DNA of 58,166 nt from Candidatus Uhrbacteria bacterium (GCA_943358395.1 CALRGY010000002.1:1-58166), one strand, 5' to 3'. Numbered from the stretch's first letter, positions 9,676 through 49,940 are shown. Notes: a model not told the origin generated them from the sequence alone. Made by a program: numbers and translations.

Positions 9676-9705
9676 ACGTGTGCTAGTATACTGCCTATCA
9701 ACTCT

Positions 9706-10524
9706 ATGAGGATCGCACAGCGTTTTCCATTTCTGCACACCGTAAGCATTTGGCGATTCCGTGTTTTGCGTTGGATGCGATGGATATTCTTTCAGCGCAT
9801 TGCCACGCATCATCGCTTGCGACCATTGCCGTTTCGCGTAACATCGCACGAATCCCTCTTGTTACGTAAGCTCGGCGACGCAGATATGCGCTTGCAGACA
9901 AATAAGATCACCAATCTTCGTCTTGCATCGGCGAAGATGAATGGAATCATCATTCGACCCGGTGAGACATTTTCGTTTTGGCGACTCGTAGGTTGGCCAA
10001 CGGCAAAGAAAGGATATGTGACAGGGATGTTGCTTTCGAATGGGAAAGTGCAAGAAGGCATCGGCGGCGGTTTATGCCAAGCAGCGAACCTGTTGTACTG
10101 GATGGCATTGCACTCGCCATTGGTTACTACCGAACGTCATCGGCATAGCTACGATATTTTTCCAGATTCTGGTCGTGTCCTTCCATTCGGTACTGGTGCT
10201 GCCGTGTACTACAACTACGTCGATCTTCAGTTTCACAATCCAACAGACACAACATTTCACATCATCATCGGCGTCAACGAAACGCATCTTCACGGAGAGA
10301 TTCGATCAGATATTCTTACGCCGCATTCGTACAAAATCATCGAGCGCGACCATCGCTTCACTCGTTCCCGTACAACCGGAAAAATCTTCCGCGAGAATAA
10401 TCTCTATCGCCAAACATTCGATAAACGCACAGGAAACATGCTGAGCGACGAGTTGCTGTATAAGAATCACTGTGAGACGCTGTATCGTCCAGAATCGAAG
10501 ATCCTCATCGAGGAAGCGCCGTAA
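9706..10524 (+). CDS. VanW family protein
   Basis: LQTNKITNLRLA..G.IIRPGETFSFW..VG and GIGGGLCQAANLLYW motifs typical of VanW. Confidence 0.8.
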   Translation: MRIAQRFPFLHTVSIWRFRVLRWMRWIFFQRIATHHRLRPLPFRVTSHESLLLRKLGDADMRLQTNKITNLRLASAKMNGIIIRPGETFSFWRLVGWPTAKKGYVTGMLLSNGKVQEGIGGGLCQAANLLYWMALHSPLVTTERHRHSYDIFPDSGRVLPFGTGAAVYYNYVDLQFHNPTDTTFHIIIGVNETHLHGEIRSDILTPHSYKIIERDHRFTRSRTTGKIFRENNLYRQTFDKRTGNMLSDELLYKNHCETLYRPESKILIEEAP

Positions 10525-12651: not shown

Positions 12652-13641
12652 TTATGCTTTGCGGATGCGGTAGGTATGCAGCTCGCGTTCTTTGGGCCAC
12701 TTCGTGAGTATACCAGTCTTCGCTCCTACATGTTGCACCACGCTTTCTGCGTTCATGGTGCCAAGGCGCAGTGCGTCTTCGATAGTCATGCCGCTCGCGA
12801 TTGCTGCGGTGAATGCAGAACCGAATGCGTCGCCGGCACCGGTACGGGAAATGGATGCCACGCCAGATGTTCTGCAGTGCCATGTTAATTTGTCCTTATG
12901 TGCATGCGCACCATTTTGTCCGTCGGTTACCACGATAATCGATCCTGGAAGTGCTAAAAGCTCGCATTGTATTTTGGGATCGTTGGACGATTTTCCTGTG
13001 AGCATTTGTGCTTCTTGAAGATTCACGATGAGGAGGGAAACGAGCTTGCGAATAGGATCAAGGCCTCTGCCGCTCTTTAATTCTTGTGCCCCTGGGTTCC
13101 ACGCAAGAAAGATACCTTTCTTTTCGCATACTTTCGCAATGGAAAGTGCGAGCGCTACATTGCCTCCCAATGATGTGAGATACACGATGTCCGATGAAAT
13201 TTTGGAAAGCTTTACATCTTTTTCGCTGAAATTTGCGCTTGCGCCACGAAAAACCAGAGCGGTTCGTTCGCCACCTTCTGCGGTAAGCAGCGTGCTGTAC
13301 GACGTGGATTCTTTTTTTGCGACGGTGATGAGGAATGTGTCAACACCGCGTGTTGCGCAATCGGTAAGAATATCGCGCCCAGAGGCATCGTCACCAATGC
13401 GGGTCATAATGCGAGTAGGGAAGGTAAGAGCAGCGAATGTTGCTGCGGCATTTGTGGCGCCACCACCAGTGGTTACGGTGAGTGCGTCGATATCGATCTT
13501 GGACCCGAGAGTCACGCATTCCGCAAGAACGCTGGGGTTGCCTGGCATTGGCATGATTTTGAACAGTTTGGAGAAAAGAAAAACATCGCGAGAAGCAGAG
13601 CCGATGGTAAGAACAGAGGGGAGAGACATAGGGGTATGCAT
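12652..13641 (-). CDS. PfkB-family carbohydrate kinase
   Basis: GGGATNAA and C-terminal GAGDAFGSAF motifs of the ribokinase/PfkB family. Confidence 0.8.
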   Translation of the reverse strand: MHTPMSLPSVLTIGSASRDVFLFSKLFKIMPMPGNPSVLAECVTLGSKIDIDALTVTTGGGATNAAATFAALTFPTRIMTRIGDDASGRDILTDCATRGVDTFLITVAKKESTSYSTLLTAEGGERTALVFRGASANFSEKDVKLSKISSDIVYLTSLGGNVALALSIAKVCEKKGIFLAWNPGAQELKSGRGLDPIRKLVSLLIVNLQEAQMLTGKSSNDPKIQCELLALPGSIIVVTDGQNGAHAHKDKLTWHCRTSGVASISRTGAGDAFGSAFTAAIASGMTIEDALRLGTMNAESVVQHVGAKTGILTKWPKERELHTYRIRKA

Positions 13642-14471
13642 TATCGTGCGGCGTGTTTCTTCCAGAGCTTCACGTAATGTGTGTAGTGTTTTGCGATAGC
13701 ATCAACAGCTTGCGCACGCGTGATTAATTTCTCCGTGTATTTCTTTACTGGATCGAAGAAAATCGTTCGTCCAATGGCAAAGCCGTCAACAACCCCGCTT
13801 TTTGCCGCAGTCACTACCCATTCGTCCACAACCTTCATCGACGCACCTCGTCCAAGAAGAATCATTGGCACCTTCGCAATTTTCGCAAGGCTTTTCCAGT
13901 CTTTTTGTGTTGGCATGGGTTCGAGTTTCCATATTGCCGGGCGAATGCCGTGGTTGTGCATGTCGCGAATAGCGATCGTTGCGCGTTTCAATGGCGAGGG
14001 TTTCCCGTGAAGCAACGGCTCCAGCATGAGGGGAATACCATCTTCAATACAGAAATCGCTGAGCGCACGAAGCTTTTTCATTTTTTCTTCGTTGAGATCA
14101 GTATCACCTACAGTGTAGTTGACGAGGACTTTTGCGAAGGTTGGATCGTGGGCAATGAGTGCACGACCGAATCCAGCACCGTGAACGAATTGCAATGTGC
14201 TCCCACCGCTTTTTTCGGTGGAAACAATGGTGGTGATGCCGAGCTTTTTTGCTTTTGCAATAACGGCACCGCCAAATTCATCATCAACGAGAACGCCGCA
14301 ATCACCTTCTTTTTGCATTGTGGAATATGCCTGCAAAAAACCATCGAAAATAATGGACCTTAGGGCGACGAGTTTCTTTCCGATGATTGCATTCGGTGGA
14401 TACGCTACACCAAAGAGCTCGTGGGTGATACCGTTCCTGTGATCAAACGGAAGGATAAAAAGGGGCTTCAT
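13641..14471 (-). CDS. Class I aldolase-like protein (LacD / IolC-C-terminal DUF2090-like)
   Basis: MKPLFILPFDHR..., LMLEPL and WKLEP strings resemble tagatose-bisphosphate/DUF2090 aldolase folds. Adjacent to the PfkB kinase. Start trimmed to Met40 of the track ORF. Confidence 0.5.
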   Translation of the reverse strand: MKPLFILPFDHRNGITHELFGVAYPPNAIIGKKLVALRSIIFDGFLQAYSTMQKEGDCGVLVDDEFGGAVIAKAKKLGITTIVSTEKSGGSTLQFVHGAGFGRALIAHDPTFAKVLVNYTVGDTDLNEEKMKKLRALSDFCIEDGIPLMLEPLLHGKPSPLKRATIAIRDMHNHGIRPAIWKLEPMPTQKDWKSLAKIAKVPMILLGRGASMKVVDEWVVTAAKSGVVDGFAIGRTIFFDPVKKYTEKLITRAQAVDAIAKHYTHYVKLWKKHAAR

Positions 14472-14500
14472 ATACAGCGAACAGTATACCGCACGCCTTG

Positions 14501-15028
14501 TTATATGTCGGATCGGTGATATATGTACCACGGCACCAATCGATCGCCACGGATTGTTTGCACGGGCTCGACGTTGGGAAACGGCCACGCTTCTATTGCG
14601 ACGACTGCTTCTGGTTTGAGCTCGCGTTTCAGGGTTGCGATGAACTTTGGGTACGCCTTTTGCATGAGAAAGGCTACAACAACATCGGCATCACTGAAGT
14701 GTTTGGTGAAAAAGTTACCGAATCGGAGTGAGACGTTTTTGTAGCGGACGGGGTGGCGAAATTTGACGAGGTATCCAAGAAAAAGGGGGAGGAGCGCAAC
14801 GTCGTAGCCGATGCAGCGTGCCCGTGGATACCGATCAGCAAACTCGAAAAGGATAGATCCGCTGCCGCACCCAAGATCGTAAATCGTTGATGCGTCATCG
14901 ATGACTAGGTTTTCGACTAACAGTTTACGTTGTGCAGAAAGGGTCGGCACCCACGGCGCAGCAAGCACACAGCCCCATGCCATGGTGCCAATAATGATAA
15001 AGAAGATGAAAAAGAGCAGGGAAGGCAT
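14501..15028 (-). CDS. Class I SAM-dependent methyltransferase with N-terminal TM helix
   Basis: Motif I IYDLGCGSGS. Start trimmed to MPSLLFFIFF. Confidence 0.65.
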   Translation of the reverse strand: MPSLLFFIFFIIIGTMAWGCVLAAPWVPTLSAQRKLLVENLVIDDASTIYDLGCGSGSILFEFADRYPRARCIGYDVALLPLFLGYLVKFRHPVRYKNVSLRFGNFFTKHFSDADVVVAFLMQKAYPKFIATLKRELKPEAVVAIEAWPFPNVEPVQTIRGDRLVPWYIYHRSDI

Positions 15029-19090: not shown

Positions 19091-19133
19091 CAGACCCTGA
19101 GGCTTCGCCGAAGGGCCTCCGTCAGGATTCTGT
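19091..19133 (+). repeat. 43-nt hairpin repeat unit (GIY-YIG-associated), copy 1
   Basis: CAGACCCTGAGGCTTCGCCGAAGGGCCTCCGTCAGGATTCTG. Its reverse complement recurs at 19683-19725 and partly at 19174-19202. Confidence 0.8.
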
Positions 19134-19667: not shown

Positions 19668-19682
19668 CTTCTGCTTCATCAA

Positions 19683-19725
19683 CAGAATCCTGGCGGAGGC
19701 CCTTCGGCAGAGCCTCAGGGTCTGT
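19683..19725 (-). repeat. 43-nt hairpin repeat unit, inverted copy
   Basis: CAGAATCCTGGCGGAGGCCCTTCGGCAGAGCCTCAGGGTCTG. Confidence 0.8.
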
Positions 19726-21042: not shown

Positions 21043-21771
21043 TCAAAGGTTGTTTTTTGGAGGAAGCGCGGCACTGTGGGTGAGTGCAAGGTACGCATTT
21101 CGTGGATGATCGGTGCCCCAAATGGCGCTTCCCGCAATAAGAGCGTTTGCCCCTGCATTGATGATATTTTGCATGTTTTCTTGAGTTACTCCGCCATCGA
21201 CTGCGATGGCGAGCGAAGGATGAATGGCGCGAATGCGGCGAATCTTTGCAAGAATCGGCTCACCAAGGAATGCGTGACCAGAATGTCCCGGTTGCACACC
21301 CATTACCAGAATACGATCGGGCAGTTGTGAAAGGACATCGATGACATCGGGTGCGGTTTCTGGGCAGAGGGCAACGCCGGTTTCTAGATCACACGCACGA
21401 ATTGCATCAAGGATCGGCGATAATGGCCTAGAAATCTCCGCATGAACAATCGCCCGAATCGTTTCCGGCACAAGTGCTTTCCACTGTTCGATGATTGGAA
21501 GAGGATTCTGAATCATGCAGTGGAGCTCGATGAATGGAACGTGATCTCTCCCCCATTTATGGGGGAGTAAGGAGGGGGCTGAAGCCGAGAGGGGGCTCTC
21601 GTGAAGAGCGGTCACTGCCGCCGCATCACAAAAACACCTTGCCCCAAACATACTTCCATCAAGAATATCGACGTGCGCTGTCATCCCCGGTTCCCAAAGC
21701 CCAGGGAACATAAGCTTCTCACGAAGCTCTTCTGCGTTTTCCGCAAGGATCGAGGGGAGAATTTCCAGCAT
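21043..21771 (-). CDS. rpe: Ribulose-phosphate 3-epimerase, carrying an in-frame repeat insertion
   Basis: ILPSILA, HVDILDG, LHCMIQNP, VMGVQPGHSGHAF, AVDGG and AGSAIWG motifs. Confidence 0.88.
   Translation of the reverse strand: MLEILPSILAENAEELREKLMFPGLWEPGMTAHVDILDGSMFGARCFCDAAAVTALHESPLSASAPSLLPHKWGRDHVPFIELHCMIQNPLPIIEQWKALVPETIRAIVHAEISRPLSPILDAIRACDLETGVALCPETAPDVIDVLSQLPDRILVMGVQPGHSGHAFLGEPILAKIRRIRAIHPSLAIAVDGGVTQENMQNIINAGANALIAGSAIWGTDHPRNAYLALTHSAALPPKNNL
21546..21598 (+). repeat. G-rich palindromic element (working label GPE) inside rpe, antisense to the gene
   Basis: CTCTCCCCCATTTATGGGGGAGTAAGGAGGGGGCTGAAGCCGAGAGGGGGCTC, translated on the minus strand as ESPLSASAPSLLPHKWGRD. 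Confidence 0.8.
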
Positions 21772-22257: not shown

Positions 22258-22328
22258 GAAGGAAGTATAGCCCAAGAGTGTTTGGAGTGGGCTTCGGATA
22301 TGAGACAATGATTATATTTTCCCCGAAT

Positions 22329-22895
22329 ATGATTAAAGCGATACTGAGCGATTACGATGGGGTACTCATTCCGGATGAGTATCGGGGCATTCGGACATTG
22401 TGTCCGGATGTAACGTTGCTTGAAAGAATCGAATCTGCGTACTACGCAACCGCGACGTGTACTGGTTTGTGGGAAGAGCTTCGCAACGCATTTGCGCTGA
22501 AGGAGAGTGACGATGAGCTTCGGATGCTTTACAACACAGAAGACGACGAGCAACGGCAATTCGAAGCACGGGTTCTTGATCGGTATCGTGAGATTCAGGG
22601 TGATTGCTTACTGCTCCTTCTTTCAAATCAAATTACCGATCGCGCGAATTATCTTCGCGCGCGTAATCATCTTGGATGTTTCGATACTCTGTATTTCTCT
22701 AATGAACTTGGTTTACAAAAACCTAACCCGGCAATTTTTGCCCTTGTTCTGGCACGCCACAACCTCTCTCCAGAAGAGGTCATCTTTATTGATGACGCAC
22801 AAGAGAATATCGATGCCGCGTCAGCCCTAGGTATGCAGACCATCCACTTTACCGGGATTGAGTCCCTTGATCGCATCCGATCATTGCTTTCCTAA
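22329..22895 (+). CDS. HAD-superfamily hydrolase
   Basis: Motif I SDYDGVL, motif III/IV K.NP..F...IFIDD. Start at MIKAIL (earlier in-frame GTG/ATG starts are possible). Confidence 0.75.
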   Translation: MIKAILSDYDGVLIPDEYRGIRTLCPDVTLLERIESAYYATATCTGLWEELRNAFALKESDDELRMLYNTEDDEQRQFEARVLDRYREIQGDCLLLLLSNQITDRANYLRARNHLGCFDTLYFSNELGLQKPNPAIFALVLARHNLSPEEVIFIDDAQENIDAASALGMQTIHFTGIESLDRIRSLLS

Positions 22896-22956: not shown

Positions 22957-23079
22957 AGGACTTTCTCATTTTCGACCAATTTCGGTGCGCAAGGAAGAAT
23001 ATTCGCGAGGTGTACTTCTCGGTACATTGAGCGAATGTTCGACGCAGCAAGCCGAAAATGGGCAAAATGAGGAAGTTCT
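22957..23079. repeat. LHE copy 3, directly upstream of ileS
   Basis: AGGACTTTCTCATTTT...AAAATGAGGAAGTTCT ends. Body CGGTGCGCAAGGAAG...GTGTAC-TTCTCG-GTACAT. Confidence 0.85.
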
Positions 23080-23105
23080 CACAATTTATCGAGCTCGGCG
23101 TTCCG

Positions 23106-26057
23106 ATGCTCCACTTGCCTGATATGCAATCACATTCTGAACAGGAAAAAGCGGTTTTGGATTCTTGGGAGAAGAATAAAATTTTTGAACGATCGGTTGA
23201 GGAACGATCGAAAGAGAAGCGATATACGTTTTACGATGGGCCGCCGTTTGCCACGGGTTTGCCGCATTATGGGAGCATTTTGCCGTCGGTGATTAAAGAT
23301 GTTGTTCCACGATATTGGACGATGAAGGGCTATAGGGTGGAGCGGGTGTGGGGTTGGGATTGTCATGGAGTGCCGATTGAAAACATGATCGAGCAGGAAT
23401 TGGGATTAAAAGGCGGGAAGAAGGGTATTGAAGAGCTGGGAATTGATAAGTTTAATGCGGCGTGCCGTGCGGCGATTTTGCGGTTCGATAAGGAATGGGA
23501 GGTGATTATCAAACGTGTTGGCCGTTGGGTCGACTTCAAGCATTCGTATAAAACCATGGACAACACGTTCATGGAAAGTGTGTGGTGGGGATTTAAGCAG
23601 CTGCACGAAAAGAATCTTGTCCGTGAAGGCAAACGAGTTATTTTGTACTGTCCGCGCTGCGCAACTCCACTCAGCAACTTCGAAATCGCGATGGACAACT
23701 CGTACAAGGACGTTGAAGACAATTCGTTGTACGTGAAATTTAAGCGAAAAGATGCAGAGAATGAATATTTCTTGGCGTGGACGACGACGCCATGGACGCT
23801 CCCCGGCAACGTCGGCTTAGCTGTCGACCGCGATGCGGAATACGTGAAAGTGCAGACCGGCGATGAGTTCGTCTGGATGGCGAAGCAGTGTATGGAGAGA
23901 ACCCTCCCCCTTTTCAAGGGGGAGTCGGAGGGGGTCTCGAATGGCGTCGTGATTGAATCCCTCCCTGGATCCTCTCTCCTCAACATCGAATACGAGCCCC
24001 TCTATTCCTACATGCCCACCGAGGGCAAAAAGGCGCATTACATTCTGCCGGCAACGTTCGTTTCCCTCGACGATGGATCCGGAATTGTTCATACGGCTGC
24101 CGTGTTCGGTGAAGACGACTATAAGCTTGCGCAAGAGTTCGATCTTCCATGTGTTCCCACTCTCGATGACCAAGGTCGGTTCCTTGATATCGTTGAGCCA
24201 CTCAAGGGTGTGTTCTACAAAAAAGGTGAGCAGTGGGTGATCGACGATCTGACGAGCAGGAATTTGGTGTGGTCGTCGACGAAGTTTATGCACTCGTATC
24301 CGATGTGCTATCGATGCTCGACTCCGTTGTATTACAACGCGGTGCCAGCATGGTTCATCGATGTGCAGTCGTTGAAACCGGAGTTGATTGCGCAGAACGA
24401 AAACATTAATTGGTACCCAGAGCACCTCAAGAAAGGGAGATTCGGCAAAGGTCTTGAAACCGCACCAGATTGGAACATTTCTCGCTCTCGGTACTGGGGA
24501 ACGCCAATGCCAGTATGGGTGGCAGAAGATGGCACACGCCGTGTTCTCGGTTCATTCGATGAGTTGAAGACATGGGCGGTTGATCCTTCGTGTGTTGAAA
24601 CGCTCACCGATTATCATCGTGAGTTTATTGACCCCATCGAGGTATGGGTTGACGATGCAAAAACGAAGAAGGGCAAGCGCATTCCAGAAGTGTTTGATTG
24701 CTGGGTGGAGTCTGGCTCTATGCCATTCGCCGCAATCCACGCGCCGTTTGAGAATAAGGAACAGTTCGATCACGCATTCCCAGCGCAATTCATCACGGAG
24801 TACATTGCGCAGACCAGAGCATGGTTTTATGTCATGCATGTCATGTCGGTAGCGCTCTTCGGCAAGAATTCGTATGAAAACGTGTTGACGACGGGAACGA
24901 TTCTCGCTGCGGACGGATCGAAGATGAGTAAGTCAAAGAAGAATTATCCTGATCCCACGATTCTTATCGAAAAGCACAGCGCGGATGCTCTTCGATTCTA
25001 TTTGATGTCTCAGCCGTTGGTGAATGGAGAAAATCTGTTGTTCAACGAATCCGGGGTCGAGGAGGTCTCCAAAAAGTTCATCACCATCATGAAGAACGTG
25101 GTGTCGTTCTACGGTTTGTACAAGGAGCACGATGATGGTCGTGAACCATCGAACATGCACGTGCTCGACCAATGGATCACGGCACGGATCGATGAGACGC
25201 TTGAGGCGGAGACCGCCGCCATCGAACGCTACGACCTTTCCGATGCCGCCCGATCCCTCCAATCCTTCGTCACCGATCTTTCCACATGGTACGTTCGCCG
25301 TTCGCGTGATCGCGTGAAGAATAGTGGCGACGATCGCGCTGAAGCGCTTGCGACTCTCCGATCGACCCTCACCACCTTCTCAAAGATGCTCGCGCCATTC
25401 ATGCCGTTCCTAGCAGAAATGATGTACCGCGATGTTGCCGGTGCCTCCGAATCCGATTCGGTTCACCTTCAGTCGTGGCCTCAGACGAGTACGCGACCTC
25501 TCCCCCTTTATAAGGGGGAGTCGGAGGGGGTGGGGAGTAAGGGGGAGGTCGTGACAGCGATGGGCGAAGCCCGCGCCATCGTTTCCCGCGTGATGGAGGC
25601 TCGCGACAATGCTGGCCGTTCCGTGAAACAAGCGCTTGGATCGATGAAAATTACGACGCCGACCGGAGCTATCGAACCAGGAATTCTCGAAGTGATTCTT
25701 GATGAGGTTAATGTAAAGACTGCAACAGTGGTGAAGGGTGCTGAGCTTGCGGTCGATGTCGATACTACACTTACCCCAGCATTGATCCGCGAAGGCATGG
25801 CACGTGAGGTAACTCGTCGGGTGAATGGGATGCGTAAAGAGGCGGGGATGACCATTGCGGATCGCATTGTCCTCCGCGTGTTCTCGGTAAGCGACGAGGT
25901 CAAGATGATGTTTGAGGAGTACAAAGATTCTCTTCAAGCCGACACCCTCTCGTCATCGGTCGCATGGGACCAATGCGACCCATCAGATTCTTCCGCAATC
26001 ACTCAATCCTTCCGCGTTGCAGAACAGGACATCACGATTGGATTTATACGAGCATAG
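23106..26057 (+). CDS. ileS: Isoleucyl-tRNA synthetase (type 2-like), with two in-frame repeat insertions
   Basis: PPFATGLPHYGS (HIGH region), WDCHG.P.E and KMSKSKKN. Start moved to ATG 23106 because the track start 23058 lies inside LHE copy 3. Confidence 0.92.
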   Translation: MLHLPDMQSHSEQEKAVLDSWEKNKIFERSVEERSKEKRYTFYDGPPFATGLPHYGSILPSVIKDVVPRYWTMKGYRVERVWGWDCHGVPIENMIEQELGLKGGKKGIEELGIDKFNAACRAAILRFDKEWEVIIKRVGRWVDFKHSYKTMDNTFMESVWWGFKQLHEKNLVREGKRVILYCPRCATPLSNFEIAMDNSYKDVEDNSLYVKFKRKDAENEYFLAWTTTPWTLPGNVGLAVDRDAEYVKVQTGDEFVWMAKQCMERTLPLFKGESEGVSNGVVIESLPGSSLLNIEYEPLYSYMPTEGKKAHYILPATFVSLDDGSGIVHTAAVFGEDDYKLAQEFDLPCVPTLDDQGRFLDIVEPLKGVFYKKGEQWVIDDLTSRNLVWSSTKFMHSYPMCYRCSTPLYYNAVPAWFIDVQSLKPELIAQNENINWYPEHLKKGRFGKGLETAPDWNISRSRYWGTPMPVWVAEDGTRRVLGSFDELKTWAVDPSCVETLTDYHREFIDPIEVWVDDAKTKKGKRIPEVFDCWVESGSMPFAAIHAPFENKEQFDHAFPAQFITEYIAQTRAWFYVMHVMSVALFGKNSYENVLTTGTILAADGSKMSKSKKNYPDPTILIEKHSADALRFYLMSQPLVNGENLLFNESGVEEVSKKFITIMKNVVSFYGLYKEHDDGREPSNMHVLDQWITARIDETLEAETAAIERYDLSDAARSLQSFVTDLSTWYVRRSRDRVKNSGDDRAEALATLRSTLTTFSKMLAPFMPFLAEMMYRDVAGASESDSVHLQSWPQTSTRPLPLYKGESEGVGSKGEVVTAMGEARAIVSRVMEARDNAGRSVKQALGSMKITTPTGAIEPGILEVILDEVNVKTATVVKGAELAVDVDTTLTPALIREGMAREVTRRVNGMRKEAGMTIADRIVLRVFSVSDEVKMMFEEYKDSLQADTLSSSVAWDQCDPSDSSAITQSFRVAEQDITIGFIRA
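23894..23925 (+). repeat. GPE copy inside ileS (first)
   Basis: CTCCCCCTTTTCAAGGGGGAGTCGGAGGGGGT, translated LPLFKGESEGV. Confidence 0.8.
25498..25547 (+). repeat. GPE copy inside ileS (second)
   Basis: CTCTCCCCCTTTATAAGGGGGAGTCGGAGGGGGTGGGGAGTAAGGGGGAG, translated PLPLYKGESEGVGSKGE. Confidence 0.8.
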
Positions 26058-26060
26058 AAT

Positions 26061-26133
26061 GGCTAATATTAGCCAAATACTATTGACAAAACCGTGATTT
26101 TGTGGCATAGTAACGCCATGGACAGTCGTATCT
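26061..26133 (+). promoter_or_regulatory. Conserved regulatory cassette copy 1: 14-nt palindrome + sigma70-like promoter + conserved transcript start
   Basis: GGCTAATATTAGCC (26061-26074), TTGACA (26083-26088), 17-nt spacer, TGgCATAGT (-10 at 26106-26111), then ACGCCATGGACAGTCGTATCT. Near-identical block at 28729-28801. Confidence 0.6.
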
Positions 26134-28292: not shown

Positions 28293-28301
28293 ATAAAGGT
28301 T

Positions 28302-28453
28302 TAGGACTTTCTCATTTTAGGATAGTTTCGATGAAGATCGAGGAAAATTCGTAAGACGTACTTCATGGTACGTTGAACGATTTTCCGATGATCTGACCCC
28401 GCCGTTCGCGAACAGCGGGGTGAGTCGAAAATAGACAAAATGAGGAAGGACTA
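28302..28453. repeat. LHE copy 4 (variant II with nested GC hairpin), intercistronic
   Basis: TAGGACTTTCTCATTTT...AAAATGAGGAAGGACTA. Body CGATGAAGATCGAGGAAAATTCG-TAAG-ACGTAC-TTCATG-GTACGT. Nested CCCCGCCGTTCGCGAACAGCGGGG. Confidence 0.85.
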
Positions 28454-28456
28454 AGA

Positions 28457-28675
28457 TTATTTTCCAACGTCGGTTCCTCCGCCCGTTGTACTGCGTGAAT
28501 TAAAAATGCTGCGTAGCCCTCGGCGTGACGACGAAGATGTGCACGGAACGGTGGTGACCGTTCCATCTTCTGCGGTGGTGGTACAAGGTTGCCGATCGCT
28601 CCACATCCATGACCCTATGATGGCTGCGCCACCAAGACCAAGCACAGCAAGAAGAGTTTTCACATTGAATGGCAT
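28457..28675 (-). CDS. Small membrane protein (hypothetical)
   Basis: 72 aa from MPFNVKTLLAVLGLGGAAIIGSWMW with one TM helix. First gene of the DUF350-speE string. Confidence 0.45.
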   Translation of the reverse strand: MPFNVKTLLAVLGLGGAAIIGSWMWSDRQPCTTTAEDGTVTTVPCTSSSSRRGLRSIFNSRSTTGGGTDVGK

Positions 28676-28728
28676 ATGCAGGAAAAGTATACCGTACAAT
28701 TTTCCTTCATGTTGAATAGTATTTATTT

Positions 28729-28803
28729 GGCTAATATTAGCCGAATACTATTGACAAAAGTCCATTTTTATGGCATAGTAACGCCATGGACAGTCGTATC
28801 TAG
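28729..28803 (+). promoter_or_regulatory. Conserved regulatory cassette copy 2 (palindrome, -35/-10, mini-ORF MDSRI*)
   Basis: GGCTAATATTAGCC (28729-28742), TTGACA (28751-28756), 17-nt spacer, CATAGT (28774-28779), ATG 28786, TAG 28801-28803. Confidence 0.6.
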
Positions 28804-28804
28804 T

Positions 28805-28941
28805 CGGGCTTTCGCCTTTCGCCTTTGGTCTCTTTTCGAATCAGCTCATCGGAAACGTCTTCAACGTACCAAGAAGTACGTCTCAGACGATTTCCTCGAT
28901 CTTCATCGAAAATAGCCTCAAATGCGGAACCCCTATCACGC
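28805..28941. repeat. LHE copy 5 (degenerate ends), inserted in the leader of cassette copy 2
   Basis: GGTCTCTTTTCGAATCAGCTCATCGGAAACGTCTTCA-ACGTAC-CAAGAA-GTACGT-CTCAGACGATTTCCTCGATCTTCATCGAAAATAGCC. Confidence 0.75.
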
Positions 28942-28959
28942 ATACACATCGAGATCACC

Positions 28960-28987
28960 AAAACTCCCGCCCTTCGGCGGGAGTTTT
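28960..28987 (+). terminator. Intrinsic terminator/attenuator hairpin, second identical copy
   Basis: AAAACTCCCGCC-CTTC-GGCGGGAGTTTT, 15 nt before ATG 29002. Confidence 0.7.
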
Positions 28988-29001
28988 GGTACACTAGAGC
29001 C

Positions 29002-29853
29002 ATGTCTCTTGATTCACTGACGAGCTTGATTATTTCTCCACGGAACGACGTTGAGTCGATGACGATTGTTGCGCTTGCGGAGGCATTGCATATTCCGTGC
29101 ATTGTTTCGGCACAGCCACATGGGGCAACGCTGGATGTTGAGCCTGGATTGATTGATCGTATTCGGGAGGCGAATCCGGTGGCGCACGACATCGTGATTG
29201 TTGAAATGCCCAGCATTGCAAAGGAAGATGCGCTGCGTGAGCTGGGGTTTGATGTGCATATCGTCGACCATCATCGGTACGAAACGCTCGATAGAATGCA
29301 GAAGGAAAGCTCGTTGGAGCAGGTGCGAGCACTTTTTGACATGAACGATGCAGCGGTTGCTGCTGCGGGATTTGATCCAGTGTTGATTCGTGGTGTGGGG
29401 CTCATCGATCGTGGATTTGTGTGGGAATTAGCAAAAGAGCATGTACCCGAGGCTGATCGCAAGCGGATGATTGCATATTATCGTGCGCAAAATACGATAC
29501 TCGATCCAGATCAGATACAGGGAGAGCGTGCCGCAAAGAAGGCGTGGGATGCGCGAAGCGTGATCGAAGGTGTGATCGTCGTTTCTGTCACCGATCCCGC
29601 ATTGCGGATTCGTGAATCCCTTTCATTTCTTGCCGCAGAAGCATTCGCGGAGGCTCCGGCAACGATCATTCATCAGCCTGGGCGTATGGCATATATGCAA
29701 GAAACATCTACGGCATCGGTATTGCAGCGTACCTTTGGCGGATTCACATTTGGACAAGATTTGTGTTGGGGAAAACCGGTGGATGCGCAGGGGAATATTC
29801 CAAGCGTCGAAGAAATTCTTGCCGCGCACCACTTGGCACTGATGACGCGATGA
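29002..29853 (+). CDS. Hypothetical protein, possibly DHH-type phosphoesterase-like
   Basis: 283 aa from MSLDSLTSL. PRNDVES...IVIVEMPS...HIVDHH spacing resembles DHH motifs I-III (weak). The track start 28825 reads through LHE copy 5. Confidence 0.55.
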   Translation: MSLDSLTSLIISPRNDVESMTIVALAEALHIPCIVSAQPHGATLDVEPGLIDRIREANPVAHDIVIVEMPSIAKEDALRELGFDVHIVDHHRYETLDRMQKESSLEQVRALFDMNDAAVAAAGFDPVLIRGVGLIDRGFVWELAKEHVPEADRKRMIAYYRAQNTILDPDQIQGERAAKKAWDARSVIEGVIVVSVTDPALRIRESLSFLAAEAFAEAPATIIHQPGRMAYMQETSTASVLQRTFGGFTFGQDLCWGKPVDAQGNIPSVEEILAAHHLALMTR

Positions 29854-30568: not shown

Positions 30569-31126
30569 ATGATCGCCTCTCTTGATGGCATTGTTTCCGG
30601 CATCGAATCCGATGGAATCCTTTTGGAAGTGAATGGTATTGGGTACCGGGTGTACATGGGCCGGGTGCAGACGGAAGTTGGCGACAGATTGCGGTGCTGG
30701 ATTAGCGAAATTATTCGGGAGGATAAGCACGACCTATACGGATTCGCGCATCGAACTGATCAGGCGTTGTTTGAACAGTTGATGAGCGTTTCTGGTGTTG
30801 GCCCGAAACTTGCGTTAAAGATTCTTTCCGTTGGCACCACGGAAGACGTTGTACGACATATCCAAATGGACGACGTGGCATTTCTCACGTCGATCAGCGG
30901 CGTGGGGAAGAAAACCGCACAGAAGATTATTTTGGATTTGAAGGGTGTGCTTGTTTTGGAGAATACGAATAATGCTTCGAATACGACCTATTCAGAAGTT
31001 TCAGACGCATTAGAAAGTCTTGGCTATTCAAAAGCGGATATTGCCGACATCGCGAAGGACATTCTTGGAGAAACCACAGAATCCCGCGTGAAATCTGCAC
31101 TGAAACTGTTATCGCGTCACGTATGA
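30569..31126 (+). CDS. ruvA: Holliday junction branch migration protein RuvA
   Basis: MIASLDG.V.......LLEVNGIGYRV, L.SVSGVGPK.AL.IL and ISGVGKKTAQKI helix-hairpin-helix motifs. Confidence 0.88.
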   Translation: MIASLDGIVSGIESDGILLEVNGIGYRVYMGRVQTEVGDRLRCWISEIIREDKHDLYGFAHRTDQALFEQLMSVSGVGPKLALKILSVGTTEDVVRHIQMDDVAFLTSISGVGKKTAQKIILDLKGVLVLENTNNASNTTYSEVSDALESLGYSKADIADIAKDILGETTESRVKSALKLLSRHV

Positions 31127-32154
31127 GCGTCGAATATACCCAAGAACAGTGGAATGCCCTTGTCGCACCATTCGCGCCCATCAGTGGTGCATTTTTGCAG
31201 AGCTTTGCCTGGGGAGAGTTTCAGCAATCGCAGGGAAGGGAAGTGAAGAGAATAGTCGTGAACGTGAACCCTCTTTTATTTATGGGGGAGTTAGGAGGGG
31301 GCGGGGGACCGAGGGGGGCTGAGCCGCAGGGGACTCGTACCGCGATCGCTCAAGCGGTGAAGTTGAAGGCACCTCTCCGCATGACGTACTGGCTGGTGCC
31401 GAAGGGCCCAATTGGCGACGCGTCATCGACGGCGATGCGAGATAGCGTGGTCGCTGCACTCGGAGCTAGCACCGATTATATCCGCACCGAATCCGCAGAA
31501 CGCCTGCCACGATCGATCGCCACGAAAGACATGCACCCCCACACCACACGTCTTATCGACCTTACGCAGGGATACGATGCAGTTTTTGGTGATTTTCATA
31601 CTCGCGTGCGATACAACACGAGGCTTGCAAAGAAGAAGGGCGTGATCTGCGAATTCGTTAGCCTCGACCGTTTTGAGGAATTCGTTGAACTCATGAAGCA
31701 AACCGCCGAGCGAGACGAGTTTTCGATTCACGAGATCGCGTATTACCGATCGATGATCGAAAGGCTCGGCGCCGAGCCATCGTGCCACGCAAAGCTGGCC
31801 ATTGCATCGAAGGATGGCACGCCCCTTGCTGCCACGCTCACCATCGACGCATTCGGTACAAGAACGTATCTGCACGGCGCATCCGGAAATATGATGCGCG
31901 AGCTGAAAGCAACCCACGTTCTGCAAGACTTCGTCATCCACGATGCCATCACTTCCGGCATGATCCGTTACGATTTCTGGGGCATCGCCCCCGAAGGATC
32001 CTCATCAAAACATCCCTGGGCCGGCATCACCGAATTCAAAAAAGCCTTCGGAGGATACGTCTATGCCACCGCCGGAACATTCGATATTCCAGTGAATATT
32101 CCAAAGTACATCATCTATCGTGTAGCAAAAGCGGTGAGGGGAGTGGTGAGGTGA
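31123..32154 (+). CDS. FemAB-family peptidyltransferase (lipid II amino-acid transferase, FemX/MurM-like) with in-frame repeat insertion
   Basis: FLQS..WGEFQ, R.N.R.A.K.G and YLHGAS...R...A.H.LQ...I patterns. Confidence 0.8.
   Translation: MSVEYTQEQWNALVAPFAPISGAFLQSFAWGEFQQSQGREVKRIVVNVNPLLFMGELGGGGGPRGAEPQGTRTAIAQAVKLKAPLRMTYWLVPKGPIGDASSTAMRDSVVAALGASTDYIRTESAERLPRSIATKDMHPHTTRLIDLTQGYDAVFGDFHTRVRYNTRLAKKKGVICEFVSLDRFEEFVELMKQTAERDEFSIHEIAYYRSMIERLGAEPSCHAKLAIASKDGTPLAATLTIDAFGTRTYLHGASGNMMRELKATHVLQDFVIHDAITSGMIRYDFWGIAPEGSSSKHPWAGITEFKKAFGGYVYATAGTFDIPVNIPKYIIYRVAKAVRGVVR
31270..31331 (+). repeat. GPE copy inside the femX-like gene
   Basis: CTCTTTTATTTATGGGGGAGTTAGGAGGGGGCGGGGGACCGAGGGGGGCTGAGCCGCAGGGG, translated PLLFMGELGGGGGPRGAEPQG. 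Confidence 0.75.
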
Positions 32155-32156: not shown

Positions 32157-32280
32157 AGGGGTTTTCGAATTTTAGGCTATTTTCGGTGCGCAAGGAGCAA
32201 AGTTCGTGAGACGTACTTAACGGTACGTTGAACGAATTTGTGACGAAGTAAGCCGAAAAGAGACAAAATGGGAAAACCCT
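32157..32280. repeat. LHE copy 6 between convergent genes
   Basis: AGGGGTTTTCGAATTTT...AAAATGGGAAAACCCT ends. The body is nearly identical to copies at 39384 and 55094. Confidence 0.85.
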
Positions 32281-32287
32281 AAATGAG

Positions 32288-33553
32288 TTACGGCAGCAAA
32301 CTAAACTTTTCCTGATGAATCCTGTGATGCGGCACTTTGAGAGCTAAAAGTTGAGTACGGATGGCGGCAACCATGCCTTGGGGGCCGCAGAGGAAGATGT
32401 CGGTGTTTTTGGGATCGAGGTGGCGTAAGGCGGCTTCGGCGGTGAGGAAGCCTTGCTCTTTGCTTTTCCACAACACCACGTTGAGATTCGGTTTTTGTGC
32501 ACGCATGCGGGCAATATCGTCGGCAACGGCGTTCTCTGTTTCGTCGGAAATAGCATAGAACAGAGTGGCGGAGTATTCGCTGGGGAGGGATTCCGCGAAG
32601 GCAAGAAACGGGGTGATGCCAATACCGCCAGCAATCCAGCACTGCGTTTTTCCGCCGGCGTTGTACGTAAAGCTTCCGTACGGCCCTTCCACCATTGCTT
32701 CGTCACCGATAACAATATTTTGGAGGGTATTCGTGAAGTCGCCGAGTTTTTTCGCCACAAAACGAATAGAGCCGTCGGCACTAGACCCGGCGATGGTGAA
32801 TGGATGCTCTTCAGCCTTCACGCCGTTGCTCATGTACGTGACGTAGGCAAACTGCCCCGGGCGAAGATCGAAGCCCTGGTTTTTTGGCGTTAATGTTACG
32901 TCAACGAATTTTTCGTTTACCACGCGAACGTTGGTAACGACATACGGTGTTCGATGCACAAAAAGCTTATGAAACAGCACACGGTACACAATAGCGAGCA
33001 CACCAAGTCCCAGGAAGAGCACAAAAAGGATGCGGAGCGCGGGGACGGATTGAATGCCGCCAGAAATGAAAATGCCATGGAGTGCGCCAAGAAGGAACGC
33101 GAGGGCAAGGTATCGGTGCACTTTTTTCCAAATATGGTACGGCAGGCGAATGTAATATGTGCACACAATGCAGAACGCCATGAGAATCAGCCCTAGAACG
33201 CCAAGGGTTTTAATGATGTCACCCACGGGAAGTAAGAATAGCGCAGCATCTTTGGGGGAAAATTGCGCAATCGGCCACACAAGAAAGAGGGGATGGAGGA
33301 GAAGCGCGATGAGTGCGCCGGTGCCGATGAGCTGATGCGCCCGATACGACTGCCCAAGGCTGCCGAAGATTTTTTCTTGCACCGGCAAGCGAACGGCGAG
33401 GAGTAGCGCGAGGGTAAAAGCGGCAAAGCCAATCACGCCTAATGTGCTACCAATGAAGTTCATCGAAAGCGTTGGCGACGTTGCACTGAGCCAGAGGGCT
33501 AAGGGAAGGGTGAGAAAGAGCGTGACGGGAATGGTGCCGGTGGGGATGCGCAT
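32288..33553 (-). CDS. Ferric-reductase-like transmembrane protein with FAD/NAD(P)-binding (FNR-like) domain
   Basis: Six TM helices with conserved His residues, then HPFTIAGS and GGIGITPF motifs. Confidence 0.75.
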   Translation of the reverse strand: MRIPTGTIPVTLFLTLPLALWLSATSPTLSMNFIGSTLGVIGFAAFTLALLLAVRLPVQEKIFGSLGQSYRAHQLIGTGALIALLLHPLFLVWPIAQFSPKDAALFLLPVGDIIKTLGVLGLILMAFCIVCTYYIRLPYHIWKKVHRYLALAFLLGALHGIFISGGIQSVPALRILFVLFLGLGVLAIVYRVLFHKLFVHRTPYVVTNVRVVNEKFVDVTLTPKNQGFDLRPGQFAYVTYMSNGVKAEEHPFTIAGSSADGSIRFVAKKLGDFTNTLQNIVIGDEAMVEGPYGSFTYNAGGKTQCWIAGGIGITPFLAFAESLPSEYSATLFYAISDETENAVADDIARMRAQKPNLNVVLWKSKEQGFLTAEAALRHLDPKNTDIFLCGPQGMVAAIRTQLLALKVPHHRIHQEKFSLLP

Positions 33554-34783: not shown

Positions 34784-37323
34784 AACACATTCAGCACATC
34801 ACTCCCATGTATGACGACGCTGTACCAGAGCGTTTTTTGAGTGCAGCAGCACAGAGCGATGAAAAAAAGCTCCTCATTCACCATGGTACCGGGAACCCGT
34901 CGCCGTATATCGTGAAGCTTTCTCGAGGCACCGATGCACCATCGACCGCGGGGACGGCAGATGCAATCCAGGCGCTTGCTGCAAGCCTCATTATCGATGG
35001 TGACGATGATAGTGGCACCATCGAAATGGAACATGAAGACCTTGGTATAGATTTTGCAGATATTTCCAGTCAGTTGCGTGAAAGAGACGTTGCGTATGGT
35101 GTGCGGATGATTCCTCAAGAAAAATCATCGGCATCCATTGAATTTCCACGACGTCCCGTTTCCCTTGATGACGCATTGGCGGCGTATGTCGATCCAGCGA
35201 TTTCGTTGGAGGCATTCGTTCCGATCACATCGGTCATGGAAGAGGTGCCTCTGGAACAGATTGCACAAGAGCAGCGCACGCCCAACACCGTTGCTCCCGA
35301 TTCTTCGTTGCGGCGCGTGATGCGTTTTGAATGGGGCTTTTTCCATCATTTGCCAACGCGCGCCTTGGGCGCATTCGTCCTTTTATCGTTTATCGTGGTG
35401 CTTCCCCTTCATGCCATGCAGGTGTTTTCTGGAACCGCTCATCAGGTGAATGCGGTGAAAGATGTTGGGTTTGCAGCATTGGATGATGTTTCACGGGCGA
35501 CAGATGCGCTTGCCGCAAAAGATTTTTCTGCCGCAGGAGATGATTTTTCTGCTGCAGCGGAAAAGTTTGCATTTGCGCAGGAATCGTTGGGCGGTTTACA
35601 TGCTGGCGTGGTGGCACTGGTGAATAGCATTCCGCAAACGGACAGAACCTATGAATCCGTGCGTGGATTAGTCACTGCAGGCCAAGAGCTTTCGCAAACA
35701 GCGTCTATCATGAGTGAAGCAATGCAGGGGATTCCGTCGCAGTCGTCTACAGATGTTGTGACAAAGTTGAATTTGCTCGGTGCGTATATTGAAAATGCAT
35801 TGCCGCATGCCTTGGCAGCAGAAGCGGCGCTGGCAAAGGTGCGTACAAGCGTGGTGCCGGCAGAGTACACTGCAACTATCGCGCGACTGCAGGCAGATGC
35901 GCCGATGGTTGCAGCATCCATGCAGGAATTTGTACGGTTTATTCATACCCTTACGTTTGTACTGGGGGGCAATAGCACCATGCGGTACTTGGCGCTGTTT
36001 CAAAACAATACGGAGCTGCGCCCCACGGGTGGATTTGTGGGGAGCTTCGCAGAGATCAGTATGAATAACGGCGCGATTGCTGCAATGCGCCTGCCAGGTG
36101 GCGGCACGTACGATACACAGGGGCAGCTAGATACTTTTGTTGCTGCACCAAGGCCGTTGCAGCTTATTAACCCCCGATGGGAGTTCCAGGACGGAAATTG
36201 GTTCCCAGATTTTCCTACGTCGGCAAAAAAGATGCAGTGGTTTTATGAGCATGCTGGTGGCCCCACCACAGACGGCGTTGTGGCAGTGAACGCCACGTTT
36301 GTCGAAAAGCTTCTTGAGGTGATTGGCCCTATTGAAATGCCAGAATATGGCGTAACCCTCAATGCGGAGAATTTTGTATTTACCACAGAAAAAGCTGTAG
36401 AAATTGATGCCGACAAAACCAAGAACACGCCAAAGGCATTTTTAGGAGACCTTGTGCCGCGGGTGATTGAAAAAATAAAGGGAGCAGATGCACCAACATT
36501 CATGAAGATTCTGCTCTTGATTGAGCGAGGGCTTGCAGAAAAAGACATTCAGCTTTCGTTCCGTGACAATGACGCGCAAAAATTGATTGCAGATTTGGGT
36601 TTTGACGGTGCCGTGCGCCAAACCGATGGAGATTACCTCATGGTCGTGAATACCAACGTTGGCGGAGGAAAGACAGATGCAGTGATTGATCAGCAGGTAG
36701 ACGTTGTAGTAGACATTGCGGAAACGGGGACTATCGATCACGCGTTGACGCTCACGAAAACGCATCGCGGCATGGCAAATGCGGTGTTTACTGGAAAAAA
36801 TAACGTTGATTATGTGCGGTTTTATGTTCCAGAGGGCAGTGTATTACTTTCTGCGGATGGTTTTGAACCACCGCCAGAATCGCTCTTTGAATCATCGAGC
36901 GTCCCCTTGGGTGTTGATGACGATTTGTCTGTCGTGATGTCTGAAGAATCGCGCGATGCGCTTTTGGGAATAGATACGTGGAACGAATTTGGAAAAACAG
37001 TGTTTGGTGGGTGGATGCAAACAGCTCCAGGGGAAACGCAGGTGGTGCAATTGTCGTATCGCATTCCGCAGGTGCTTTTTCGTGACGAGGGCAGTACATC
37101 GGTGTTTGCACGTGCGCGCAATGCACTGGGGCTTGGTACGCACGATGGATATTCCCTTTTTGTGCAAAAACAATCTGGCGTGGTGTCGCGCGACACCACG
37201 GTACGTGTATCCGTTCCAAGCACGATGCATACCGCATGGACGAATGTTACAGGCGCAGACACGAATATAGTGACGTTTCAGAATACTCATGATGTTTTTT
37301 CCGGATGGTTATTGAAAAAATAA
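34780..37323 (+). CDS. DUF4012-domain membrane protein
   Basis: MRYLALFQNNTELRPTGGFVGSFAEI is the signature DUF4012 block. GTGA overlap with the upstream stop. Confidence 0.7.
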   Translation: MKHIQHITPMYDDAVPERFLSAAAQSDEKKLLIHHGTGNPSPYIVKLSRGTDAPSTAGTADAIQALAASLIIDGDDDSGTIEMEHEDLGIDFADISSQLRERDVAYGVRMIPQEKSSASIEFPRRPVSLDDALAAYVDPAISLEAFVPITSVMEEVPLEQIAQEQRTPNTVAPDSSLRRVMRFEWGFFHHLPTRALGAFVLLSFIVVLPLHAMQVFSGTAHQVNAVKDVGFAALDDVSRATDALAAKDFSAAGDDFSAAAEKFAFAQESLGGLHAGVVALVNSIPQTDRTYESVRGLVTAGQELSQTASIMSEAMQGIPSQSSTDVVTKLNLLGAYIENALPHALAAEAALAKVRTSVVPAEYTATIARLQADAPMVAASMQEFVRFIHTLTFVLGGNSTMRYLALFQNNTELRPTGGFVGSFAEISMNNGAIAAMRLPGGGTYDTQGQLDTFVAAPRPLQLINPRWEFQDGNWFPDFPTSAKKMQWFYEHAGGPTTDGVVAVNATFVEKLLEVIGPIEMPEYGVTLNAENFVFTTEKAVEIDADKTKNTPKAFLGDLVPRVIEKIKGADAPTFMKILLLIERGLAEKDIQLSFRDNDAQKLIADLGFDGAVRQTDGDYLMVVNTNVGGGKTDAVIDQQVDVVVDIAETGTIDHALTLTKTHRGMANAVFTGKNNVDYVRFYVPEGSVLLSADGFEPPPESLFESSSVPLGVDDDLSVVMSEESRDALLGIDTWNEFGKTVFGGWMQTAPGETQVVQLSYRIPQVLFRDEGSTSVFARARNALGLGTHDGYSLFVQKQSGVVSRDTTVRVSVPSTMHTAWTNVTGADTNIVTFQNTHDVFSGWLLKK

Positions 37324-37326
37324 ATG

Positions 37327-37505
37327 TAGGACTTCCTCATTTTGTCTATTTTCGACTCACCCCGCTGTTCGCGAACGGCGGGGTCAGATCATCGGAAAAT
37401 CGTTCACCCCGCTTCTCGCGAGAGGCGGGGTCAACGTACCATGAAGTACGTCTCACGAATTTTCCTCGATCTTCATCGAAACTAGCCTAAAATGAGAAAG
37501 TCCTA
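37327..37505. repeat. LHE copy 7 (variant II, two nested GC hairpins), fills the whole intergenic gap
   Basis: TAGGACTTCCTCATTTT...AAAATGAGAAAGTCCTA. Nested CCCCGCTGTTCGCGAACGGCGGGG (37360-37383) and CCCCGCTTCTCGCGAGAGGCGGGG (37407-37430). Confidence 0.88.
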
Positions 37506-37511
37506 AAACAT

Positions 37512-39329: not shown

Positions 39330-39383
39330 TCCTCTATTGATACGGTGGCTATATATAGCAAAAGAAAACGTAAGTAATTTAAT

Positions 39384-46955: not shown

Positions 46956-46983
46956 AAGCGAGGAGATGAATCTCGATTGTGAA

Positions 46984-49901: not shown

Positions 49902-49940
49902 CAAGATCACGACAAGGGGCGTGATATAATTCTTCACAAT

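Follow-up and report, generated by a model that had tools for sequence, protein, structure and literature searches.

Why would the gene of an essential enzyme, isoleucyl-tRNA synthetase (IleRS, the product of ileS), carry the same short G-rich palindrome twice, in frame and at two unrelated positions? The question is raised by a 58,166-nucleotide (nt) stretch of a Candidatus Uhrbacteria genome (GCA_943358395.1, CALRGY010000002.1:1-58166), whose lineage belongs to the Patescibacteria or candidate phyla radiation (CPR). This stretch, called the window below, is the part of the source genome covered by our analysis. We consider it likely that both ileS segments belong to a family of short, non-autonomous, G/C-rich palindromic repeats with a triplex-type architecture, copied at the DNA level and carried as passengers in permissive loops of the protein.

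Two in-frame copies of one element in ileS

Two near-identical G-rich palindromic elements lie in the ileS reading frame, and the open reading frame (ORF) is intact, as the original prediction from this DNA had held. Copy B, at IleS site 1 (23904-23935, plus strand; the prediction had placed it 10 nt too low, at 23894-23925), has the string CTCCCCCTTTTCAAGGGGGAGTCGGAGGGGGT and is translated as LPLFKGESEGV from L283. It consists of a pyrimidine arm CTCCCCC, a loop TTTTCAA, a purine arm GGGGGAG, a linker TCG and a mirror tail GAGGGGG. Copy C, at site 2 (25497-25547, plus strand; its string had been correctly located at 25498-25547), has the hairpin and tail of copy B plus an extra G-rich stretch, GGGGAGTAAGGGGGAG, and is translated as PLPLYKGESEGVGSKGE from P814; both translations had been given correctly. 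The insert peptide stretches in IleS are LPLFKGESEGV, PLPLYKGESEGV and PLPLYKGESEGVGSK. The stem CTCCCCC/GGGGGAG has 7 bp, or 9 bp with the flanking T-A pairs, and a DNA folding energy of -10 to -14 kcal/mol. The hairpin pattern CTCCCCCN7GGGGGAG matches twice against 0.00 matches expected and the 18-mer GGGGGAGTCGGAGGGGGT twice against 0.04. The palindromic repeat found twice in frame in ileS is real and not due to chance.

Further copies beyond chance expectation are present in public DNA (described below) and in the window, where they had been announced for two other genes and one intergenic region. Copy A (21537-21597, G-rich strand plus) lies inside rpe (ribulose-phosphate 3-epimerase, 21043-21771, minus strand) and is read antisense as ...SAPSLLPHKWGRDHV...; it has the loop ATTTAT and the tail TAAGGAGGGGGC, followed by a second small hairpin. 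Copy D (31258-31320, plus strand) is a clean insertion of 63 nt (21 codons) in a FemAB-family gene (31123-32154, plus strand), with its left arm decayed to CTCTTTT. Copies E (46908-46956, minus strand) and F (46979-47040, plus strand) form an intergenic inverted doublet (46908-47040). Copy F has a compensated stem, CCCCTCC/GGAGGGG, with a matching mirror tail, GGGGGAGG; next to follow are a hairpin resembling a terminator and a tRNA gene (47079-47162, minus strand). The doublet faces inward, and 46900-47045 folds as a 146-nt hairpin (-40.2 kcal/mol, z = -4.8). The window thus holds six copies in 58 kb, about one per 10 kb, against about 0 expected, and four of the six are genic. The elements are G-rich and 33-75 nt long. 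The two ileS copies are closer to each other and to the ileS copies of the related locus L004 than to the other window copies, and a CGTGA-like direct repeat flanks copies A, C and D.

The host gene, listed as an ORF of 999 codons (23058-26057, plus strand), was identified by Pfam and PDB matches. Its product contains the Pfam domains tRNA-synt_1, Anticodon_1 and DUF5915, and its best solved relative is the Thermus thermophilus IleRS (PDB 1ILE, E = 9e-201). These matches indicate a type-2 IleRS with a catalytic core, a CP1 editing domain, an anticodon-binding domain and a DUF5915 C-terminal domain; KMSKS is intact, as is the editing-site motif WTTTPWTLPGN. Translation probably begins 16-22 codons downstream of the listed ATG (MLHLPDMQS...; region 23058-23125), because the gene of the 95% relative, L081, encodes 967 residues and the listed ATG at 23058 lies inside a copy of a miniature inverted-repeat transposable element (MITE)-like repeat that is absent from L081. 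At the class I HIGH signature (23265-23276, residues 70-73), the window protein and its relatives P0001-P0003 have HYGS and all other relatives examined have HYGH, a stable subclade change at the fourth position of the catalytic motif and not decay.

Both positions in the protein had been guessed correctly, according to the Pfam and PDB alignments. Site 1 (residues 283-296) is within the CP1 editing domain, where the T. thermophilus editing-domain structures 1WK8 and 1UE0 align to residues 215-415. Site 2 (residues 814-830) comes after SVHLQSWP, the SVHLxxWP motif that ends the anticodon-binding domain, and ahead of DUF5915, in the linker that leads to the C-terminal part. An AlphaFold2 model of the window IleS has a moderate overall confidence (mean predicted local distance difference test score, pLDDT, of 71). 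In this model, coils 289-293 and 819-825 have a pLDDT below 50 and their flanks 84-91, so that the surface-loop expectation is borne out: the two sites are the only low-confidence coils within otherwise confident regions, and both inserts are modeled in loops.

Distribution of the inserts among relatives

We compared IleS relatives in a graded series from 95% down to about 55% identity. The site 1 insert occurs only in the IleS of the 78-95% clade, and the distant IleS proteins and the T. thermophilus enzyme have a short turn there. The site 2 element is absent from L081, is present in L004, L003 and L261, and has no counterpart in distant lineages. Several relatives lack the element of either site, and a neighbour-joining tree built with the insert columns removed gives a patchy presence at both. 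The orthologue alignment thus went as predicted: the inserted residues are absent from related and distant IleS lineages, and the lengths (12, 36 and 63 nt) are divisible by three. Outside ileS, copy D is missing in six orthologues, and copy A is common only to the window and L081 and is missing in eight. By these alignments, all four genic copies are lineage-specific in-frame insertions.

Over the ~3 kb of the ileS region, exactly three indels separate the window from L081, all at repeats: 12 nt at 23934-23945, adjoining copy B; 36 nt at copy C, together with a stretch that has been replaced; and 87 nt at 22974-23060, at the unrelated MITE-like repeat upstream of ileS. All indels in coding sequence are multiples of three. 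Two of the three sit at the elements, a local instability (in this one genome pair) that matches the one reported for the TM motifs introduced below (PMC4666352). Two further differences were seen in this region. At site 2, the relatives P0002, P0004, P0005, P0006 and P0012 carry a different, unrelated insert of ~17 residues, IHFPSMMGxxEDxxVEMQN, in the same linker. Between rpiB and ileS, L081 has a gene for 593 residues with a weak PcfJ-like match (L081:726-2507), where the window has a HAD-hydrolase gene (22278-22895).

Other CPR lineages have in-frame variants of their own in their ileS genes. In L008 the variant follows RRSRDRFK; L017 has one behind SFYxxYK and another, acquired independently, behind WP at the window's site 2. 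The variants of L065, just before SVHL, and of L073 and L031, which have two different ones in the loop that precedes WTTTPWTLP, are read antisense. In all, CPR lineages have variants in at least six IleS loops, two of which have been hit twice by different variants. This pattern is hard to explain without repeated independent insertion into permissive loops.

Identity at the DNA level and translation of the inserts

At site 1 of L001 (84% amino acid identity), the same DNA element is present with its 3' half in another frame (FMGGVGGG versus FKGESEGV). A 23-base pattern of the element has at least 120 exact matches in metagenomes, for which no cross-phylum homology is claimed, the exact motif being of low complexity and the matches sharing those bases by construction. 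Thirty of 125 such matches (~24%) lie inside long ORFs, with all six reading frames used and 19 of the 30 antisense. Judged by eye from their translations, the ten longest host ORFs include UvrA twice, an AroA-Cmk fusion, HypF, a UvrD-like helicase, a CCA-adding enzyme, a DNA methyltransferase and a histidine kinase, and several carry an element doublet. The CCA-adding enzyme of a groundwater CPR bacterium, for instance, has two adjacent in-frame elements (L113:5640-5730, SPQPPPSKGGGGITDIAPPYEGGVGGG), which form an intragenic doublet. The original prediction had argued that the strings go beyond what protein-level conservation would give, and the readings in another frame (L001), antisense (rpe) and in six frames elsewhere agree with this. 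Since the same DNA is read in different frames and orientations, its identity sits in the DNA and not in the peptide, and for the same reason a peptide-level motif was ruled out. A known RNA family was also rejected as a candidate: Rfam, used at the gathering threshold for the window and at an E-value threshold for ten loci, returned only rRNA, tRNA and sub-threshold hairpin look-alikes.

The family consensus GAG-TAA-GGA has TCG in place of TAA in ileS and TTA (GAG-TTA-GGA) in the FemAB-family gene; the antisense and intergenic copies keep TAA. That TAA is changed only in the frame where a stop would result argues for translation of the inserts, and we infer that the ileS inserts are probably translated, near-neutral passengers. 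The window and L004 are identical at 33 of 35 nt at site 2, with the differences in the loop and the last tail base, although third-codon identity between the two at conserved residues is only 0.47; the nucleotides are thus conserved beyond what the protein requires. Decayed copies, namely copy D of the window, the site 1 copy of L004 (left arm) and the L001 copy, indicate that not every copy is under constraint.

A tail that mirrors the purine arm

The hairpin had been described as followed by a separate module, T[AC][AG]GGAGGGGG. The module is present, but rather than an extra piece it is the mirror (the reverse, not the reverse complement) of the copy's own purine arm, placed after a 2-4-nt linker, and it co-varies with that arm. 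Thus GGGGGAG is followed by GAGGGGG, GGGGGGA by AGGGGGG, GGAGGGG by GGGG(A/T)GG and GGGGAGG by GG(A/T)GGGG. All the DNA that we fetched was searched for pyrimidine/purine hairpins whose 3' flank is G-rich, and the tails were then shuffled among the hairpins. The counts, which include related and not fully independent copies, gave perfect own-mirror tails in 116 of 150 hairpins against 43.8 in the shuffled sets (maximum 59 in 2000 shuffles), in 61 of 84 against 13.0 without the arm class used to fetch the loci, and, for 1.47 Mb obtained without use of the element, in 27 of 34 against 7.6 (maximum 17 in 5000 shuffles), this last set having many arm classes from several CPR lineages. Direct-repeat tails numbered only 17 in the 150-hairpin scan. 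Loops of 6 nt and of 7 nt occur among 21 copies and fall out of register in a MAFFT alignment.

In a purine-motif triple helix, G pairs opposite G, and A or T opposite A, with the strands antiparallel. At the A positions where the tails of L053, L137, L017 and L073 do not follow the mirror, they have T, as the purine motif allows. In E. coli, motifs of this class, the class II intrastrand triplex motifs, have been described successively under the names BoxC, PIT and TM (Holder et al. 2015, NAR, PMC4666352). They are plentiful in more than 260 genomes, their single strands form a stable triplex in vitro, palindromic doublets occur, and small indels between close strains are commoner around them; neither promoter nor terminator activity had come to light in earlier studies, and RNA is stated not to form purine-motif triplexes (PMC4666352). 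By its architecture, the window element is a separate family within this class of BoxC/PIT/TM motifs. In viral contigs, a loose form of the pattern gave 57 matches, of which only 12 have a hairpin. Five of the contigs (L211, L220, L222, L225 and L243) share a locus, ...AAAGCTGnnTnCACTCCCACTGTCACTCCCCCTnCGGGGGAGTCGGAGGGGG..., with the same purine arm and mirror tail and a 3-nt loop, and their conserved flanks suggest a phage-borne version of the motif.

A proposed explanation and candidates for mobilisation

We propose that, when the G-rich strand becomes single-stranded, the arms would form a Watson-Crick hairpin, on whose purine arm the tail would fold back antiparallel by reverse-Hoogsteen pairing (G·G-C, A·A-T, T·A-T); triplex formation in the cell is, as we infer, part of this picture. 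Copies would be made at the DNA level and land anywhere. Survivors in genes would be those that keep the frame, bring no stop codon and fall in a permissive surface loop, and the ileS copies would then be translated as Gly/Glu/Pro-rich extensions of two loops, one within the CP1 editing domain and the other within the linker that precedes the C-terminal part. The structure-prone DNA would also turn these sites into hot spots for small indels and replacements between close relatives. Candidates for the copying step are a single-strand-specific HUH/Y1 transposase acting in trans and replication-linked template switching or gene conversion. The evidence supports a mobile element in behaviour. More tentatively, the co-variation of arm and tail over many arm classes and lineages, with T only opposite A, might mean that triplexes form in cells and are needed for the propagation or retention of very widespread repeats, and that Gly/Glu/Pro-rich loops are repeatedly written into essential enzymes such as IleRS of the streamlined CPR genomes and maintained at the nucleotide level in coding sequence; we regard this wider reading as doubtful.

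Several observations weigh against the proposed explanation. No transposase, Y1 or repetitive extragenic palindromic (REP)-associated tyrosine transposase (RAYT) included, was found among the 26 window ORFs scanned by Pfam, and none is enriched beside the metagenome copies, whose 148 neighbouring ORFs gave only housekeeping families. No target-site duplication with a clean empty site was found, and the 'empty' site 2 of L081 is a complex replacement with conserved flanks and not a precise excision. At divergences that saturate synonymous sites, the arms and tail of orthologous intragenic copies hardly change, which is not what passive carriage predicts; gene conversion that depends on structure, recurrent insertion into the same loops or a role for the host could be the cause. 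The protein P0002 looks mosaic, with the N-terminal HYGS of the window clade and the site 2 insert of the other clade, so recombination may partly cause the patchiness. The mirror-tail counts have the dependence among copies noted above, and the triplex of the TM motifs went undetected in duplex DNA and in vivo (PMC4666352).

Two candidates for a mobilising protein were rejected. The syntenic ORF at 13641-14588 encodes a DUF2090/aldolase-like protein and not a Y1_Tnp protein. L261 has, between its PfkB and methyltransferase genes, a gene for a RAYT-like Y1_Tnp protein of 285 residues with the HUH motif GNHYHLL (L261:3290-4245), which is absent at the same place in the window and which matches the NCBIfam model REP_Tyr_transpos with E = 4e-22 and 78.8 bits (cutoff 80). 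This gene is flanked by its own unrelated 28-nt inverted repeats (TGGGGTCAAGTCCGGAATyCGGAAT), a 'TIRtron' arrangement, and not by the G-rich element, so it does not qualify as a cognate REPtron; the protein (searched by tblastn in the window) and its inverted repeats are absent from the window and from all other fetched loci. A replication-strand bias was likewise considered. In each of the four solitary window copies, the G-rich strand is the one with positive GC skew; the metagenome loci split 27:23, and 21:11 at higher skew (p = 0.11), and do not support such a bias.

Weighing other explanations

One alternative, which is compatible with our explanation and specifies how the element is mobilised, is that it is a REP, or a REP doublet forming a hairpin (REPIN), mobilised in trans by a RAYT of the IS200/IS605-type HUH Y1 kind acting on single-stranded hairpins. 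Short palindromes in many copies, an inverted doublet that folds into a 146-nt hairpin, the RAYT-like HUH protein in the syntenic region of L261 just under its cutoff, and GTAG at the end of some copies (L261, L004 and many metagenome copies) would all fit, and REPs inside genes have been documented, with repair genes and tRNA synthetases as frequent hosts. However, the linkers of the window copies have GTAA or GTCG and not GTAG, and GTAG, where it occurs elsewhere, lies 3' of the palindrome on the G-rich strand. With the repeats around the L261 gene unrelated, and neither gene nor repeats found in the window or other fetched loci, with the 27:23 split giving no strand bias and with Y1 families unenriched near the copies, we hold this version to be possible, if on balance doubtful. 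It is unlikely that homologous recombination or gene conversion, swapping variable-loop cassettes between ileS alleles and copies, produced the patchiness in place of transposition. Such exchange would account for the complex replacement with conserved flanks between the window and L081 at site 2, for the mosaic look of P0002, for the second, unrelated insert type (IHFPSMMGxxED) at site 2 of five relatives and for the resemblance of the ileS copies to each other and to those of L004 rather than to other window copies, and recombination between ileS alleles probably does contribute to the patchiness. It cannot account for copies in unrelated genes and in both orientations, or for different variants in at least six IleS loops of distant lineages.

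The near-invariance of arms and tail at almost saturated synonymous sites, with loops that vary, could also mean that the host keeps the copies for a DNA or RNA structure, for example for polymerase or ribosome pausing between domains or for control of mRNA stability. Both sites are at or near domain boundaries, and the element contains a Shine-Dalgarno-like GGAGG. Yet site 2 is missing from the closest relative and both sites are missing from several relatives, and decayed copies exist; the orientation to transcription is not fixed (antisense in rpe and in 19 of 30 other hosts), and the literature reports neither promoter nor terminator activity for such motifs, nor purine-motif triplexes in RNA. 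A host role is thus, in our judgment, quite improbable. That there is no element at all, with independent slippage or composition in Gly/Glu-rich loops, or selection on a peptide motif, producing the strings, draws on the small effective sequence space of low-complexity G runs, through which the cross-phylum exact matches could be convergent. We regard it as very improbable, because unrelated sites share identical strings of 18-35 nt where 0-0.04 are expected, the same DNA yields unrelated peptides in other frames or antisense, and arm, partner arm and tail change together. Finally, stable hairpins inside coding sequence recall phage T4 gene 60 and the mitochondrial byp elements, the precedents for untranslated inserts, which raises ribosome bypass or removal from the mRNA. 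Here the genic copies and indels are all multiples of three, no in-frame stop is present, TAA is changed exactly where it would be in frame, and no matching take-off and landing codons were noticed, so that inserts escaping translation are hardly credible.

Other repeats and loci in the window

A second repeat family in the window is MITE-like, ~125 nt long, with terminal inverted repeats of ~30 nt (AGGACTTTCTCATTTT...) and an internal ACGTAC hairpin. Its 10-11 copies in 58 kb are all intergenic and in both orientations, with one in the 23S-5S spacer; they lie at 337-468, 22957-23081, 28300-28463, 28812-28943, 32159-32291, 37317-37519, 39370-39554, 43245-43275, 49819-49910, 55093-55226 and 56683-56748. 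Two 74-nt stretches, 26060-26133 and 28728-28801, are 89% identical; in each, a small palindrome (TGGCTAATATTAGCCA) is followed by TTGACA...TAGTAA, which resembles a promoter, and by a conserved leader. The stretches are located upstream of an S-adenosylmethionine (AdoMet) decarboxylase gene and of the ORF at 28825-29853, and the pair may be a shared promoter or regulatory cassette. A 43-nt inverted repeat (19091-19133 and 19682-19724, 93% complementary) surrounds ~550 bp with a 101-codon ORF, and the segment that it brackets may be a small mobile cassette. Between the ORFs at 6675-7910 (plus strand) and 8308-9849 (minus strand), 12-nt periodic repeats (CTTTCTTCACAA-like) occupy 7995-8104; the minus-strand translation, if any, would be a Lys/Ala/Val-rich repeat.

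Significance and comparison with known systems

CPR genomes are small, and the window indicates that they still carry active-looking repeat families, here with most copies inside genes and with IleRS, a large multi-domain essential enzyme, as a recurrent landing place. For annotation, the element explains odd low-complexity peptides (PLxKGExEGV, PPxQGGxGGG and TPSNSPLSGGE) within proteins that are conserved elsewhere, and it cautions against reading them as functional motifs. Its asymmetric arms also make the mirror rule of the third strand testable by comparison, which the symmetric BoxC of E. coli does not.

The original prediction compared the ileS segments to Rickettsia palindromic elements (RPEs), and this comparison stands for behaviour: like RPEs, the element looks selfish, lies in frame in essential genes, is read in several frames and falls in surface regions that tolerate it. 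RPEs, described by Ogata and colleagues in 2000, are reportedly ~100-150 bp long, not G-rich, found in Rickettsiales and divided into the families RPE-1 to RPE-8. At 33-75 nt, G-rich and with another architecture, the window element is not an RPE; no kinship in sequence or architecture is evident, and the resemblance is one of behaviour only. The GC-cluster and byp elements of fungal mitochondria are short G/C-rich hairpins in coding sequences of AT-rich organelle genomes, and byp elements are bypassed in translation; unlike these, the evidence from the window points to translated inserts.

The architecture is closest to the BoxC/PIT/TM motifs, with which the element shares a C-rich stem (6-15 nt in the class), a loop, a G-rich stem, a second loop of ~3 nt (1-6 nt) and one further G-rich stem that obeys the reverse-Hoogsteen rule, as well as the multi-copy state, the palindromic doublets and the small indels between close relatives. 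It differs from the TM-ECO consensus CCCTCNCCC-N3-6-GGGNGAGGG-N3-GGGNGAGGG in its stem, CTCCCCC/GGGGGAG, which has 7 nt instead of 9 nt, and from the E. coli motifs in its CPR host, in the four of six copies that lie in genes and in frame, and in the asymmetric arm that exposes the mirror relation. Neither 'in-frame' nor 'open reading frame' is used in the main text on the TM motifs, which analyses the copies of E. coli by how far they lie from neighbouring ORFs (PMC4666352).

In-frame carriage has its best parallel in the GTAG- and CGTC-tagged REPs found inside genes as singles or dimers, sometimes twice per gene (Di Nocera et al. 2013, BMC Genomics, PMC3733652). Many of their hosts are uvrA, uvrB, uvrD, polA and recBCD and some are tRNA synthetases, among them the IleRS of Erythrobacter litoralis, with a REP dimer at residues 467-488 (PMC3733652). 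The hosts of the window family likewise include UvrA, a UvrD-like helicase and IleS. Unlike these REPs, the window copies have no consistent GTAG/CGTC tag, their mirror purine tail is outside the REP definition, and no cognate RAYT was found. With REPs and REPINs in general, the element shares short imperfect palindromes (20-40 nt in REPs), many copies and inverted pairs. REPINs lie outside genes and are linked to a RAYT that is present in one copy with repeats at its flanks (Bertels and Rainey 2011, PMC3116915). The inverted doublet at 46908-47040, as a long hairpin, and a repeat population that persists within a lineage are like the REPIN-RAYT system; in contrast to such mainly extragenic repeats, four of six window copies are genic and ~24% of 125 metagenome copies lie in long ORFs, and the RAYT link was tested and not found. 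In summary, in-frame carriage, known from intragenic REPs and RPEs, and the triplex-motif class have been described before; the new points are that the host is a CPR bacterium, that the copies are dense inside genes, that IleS loops, at least six of them, are used recurrently, and that comparison supports the triplex rule.

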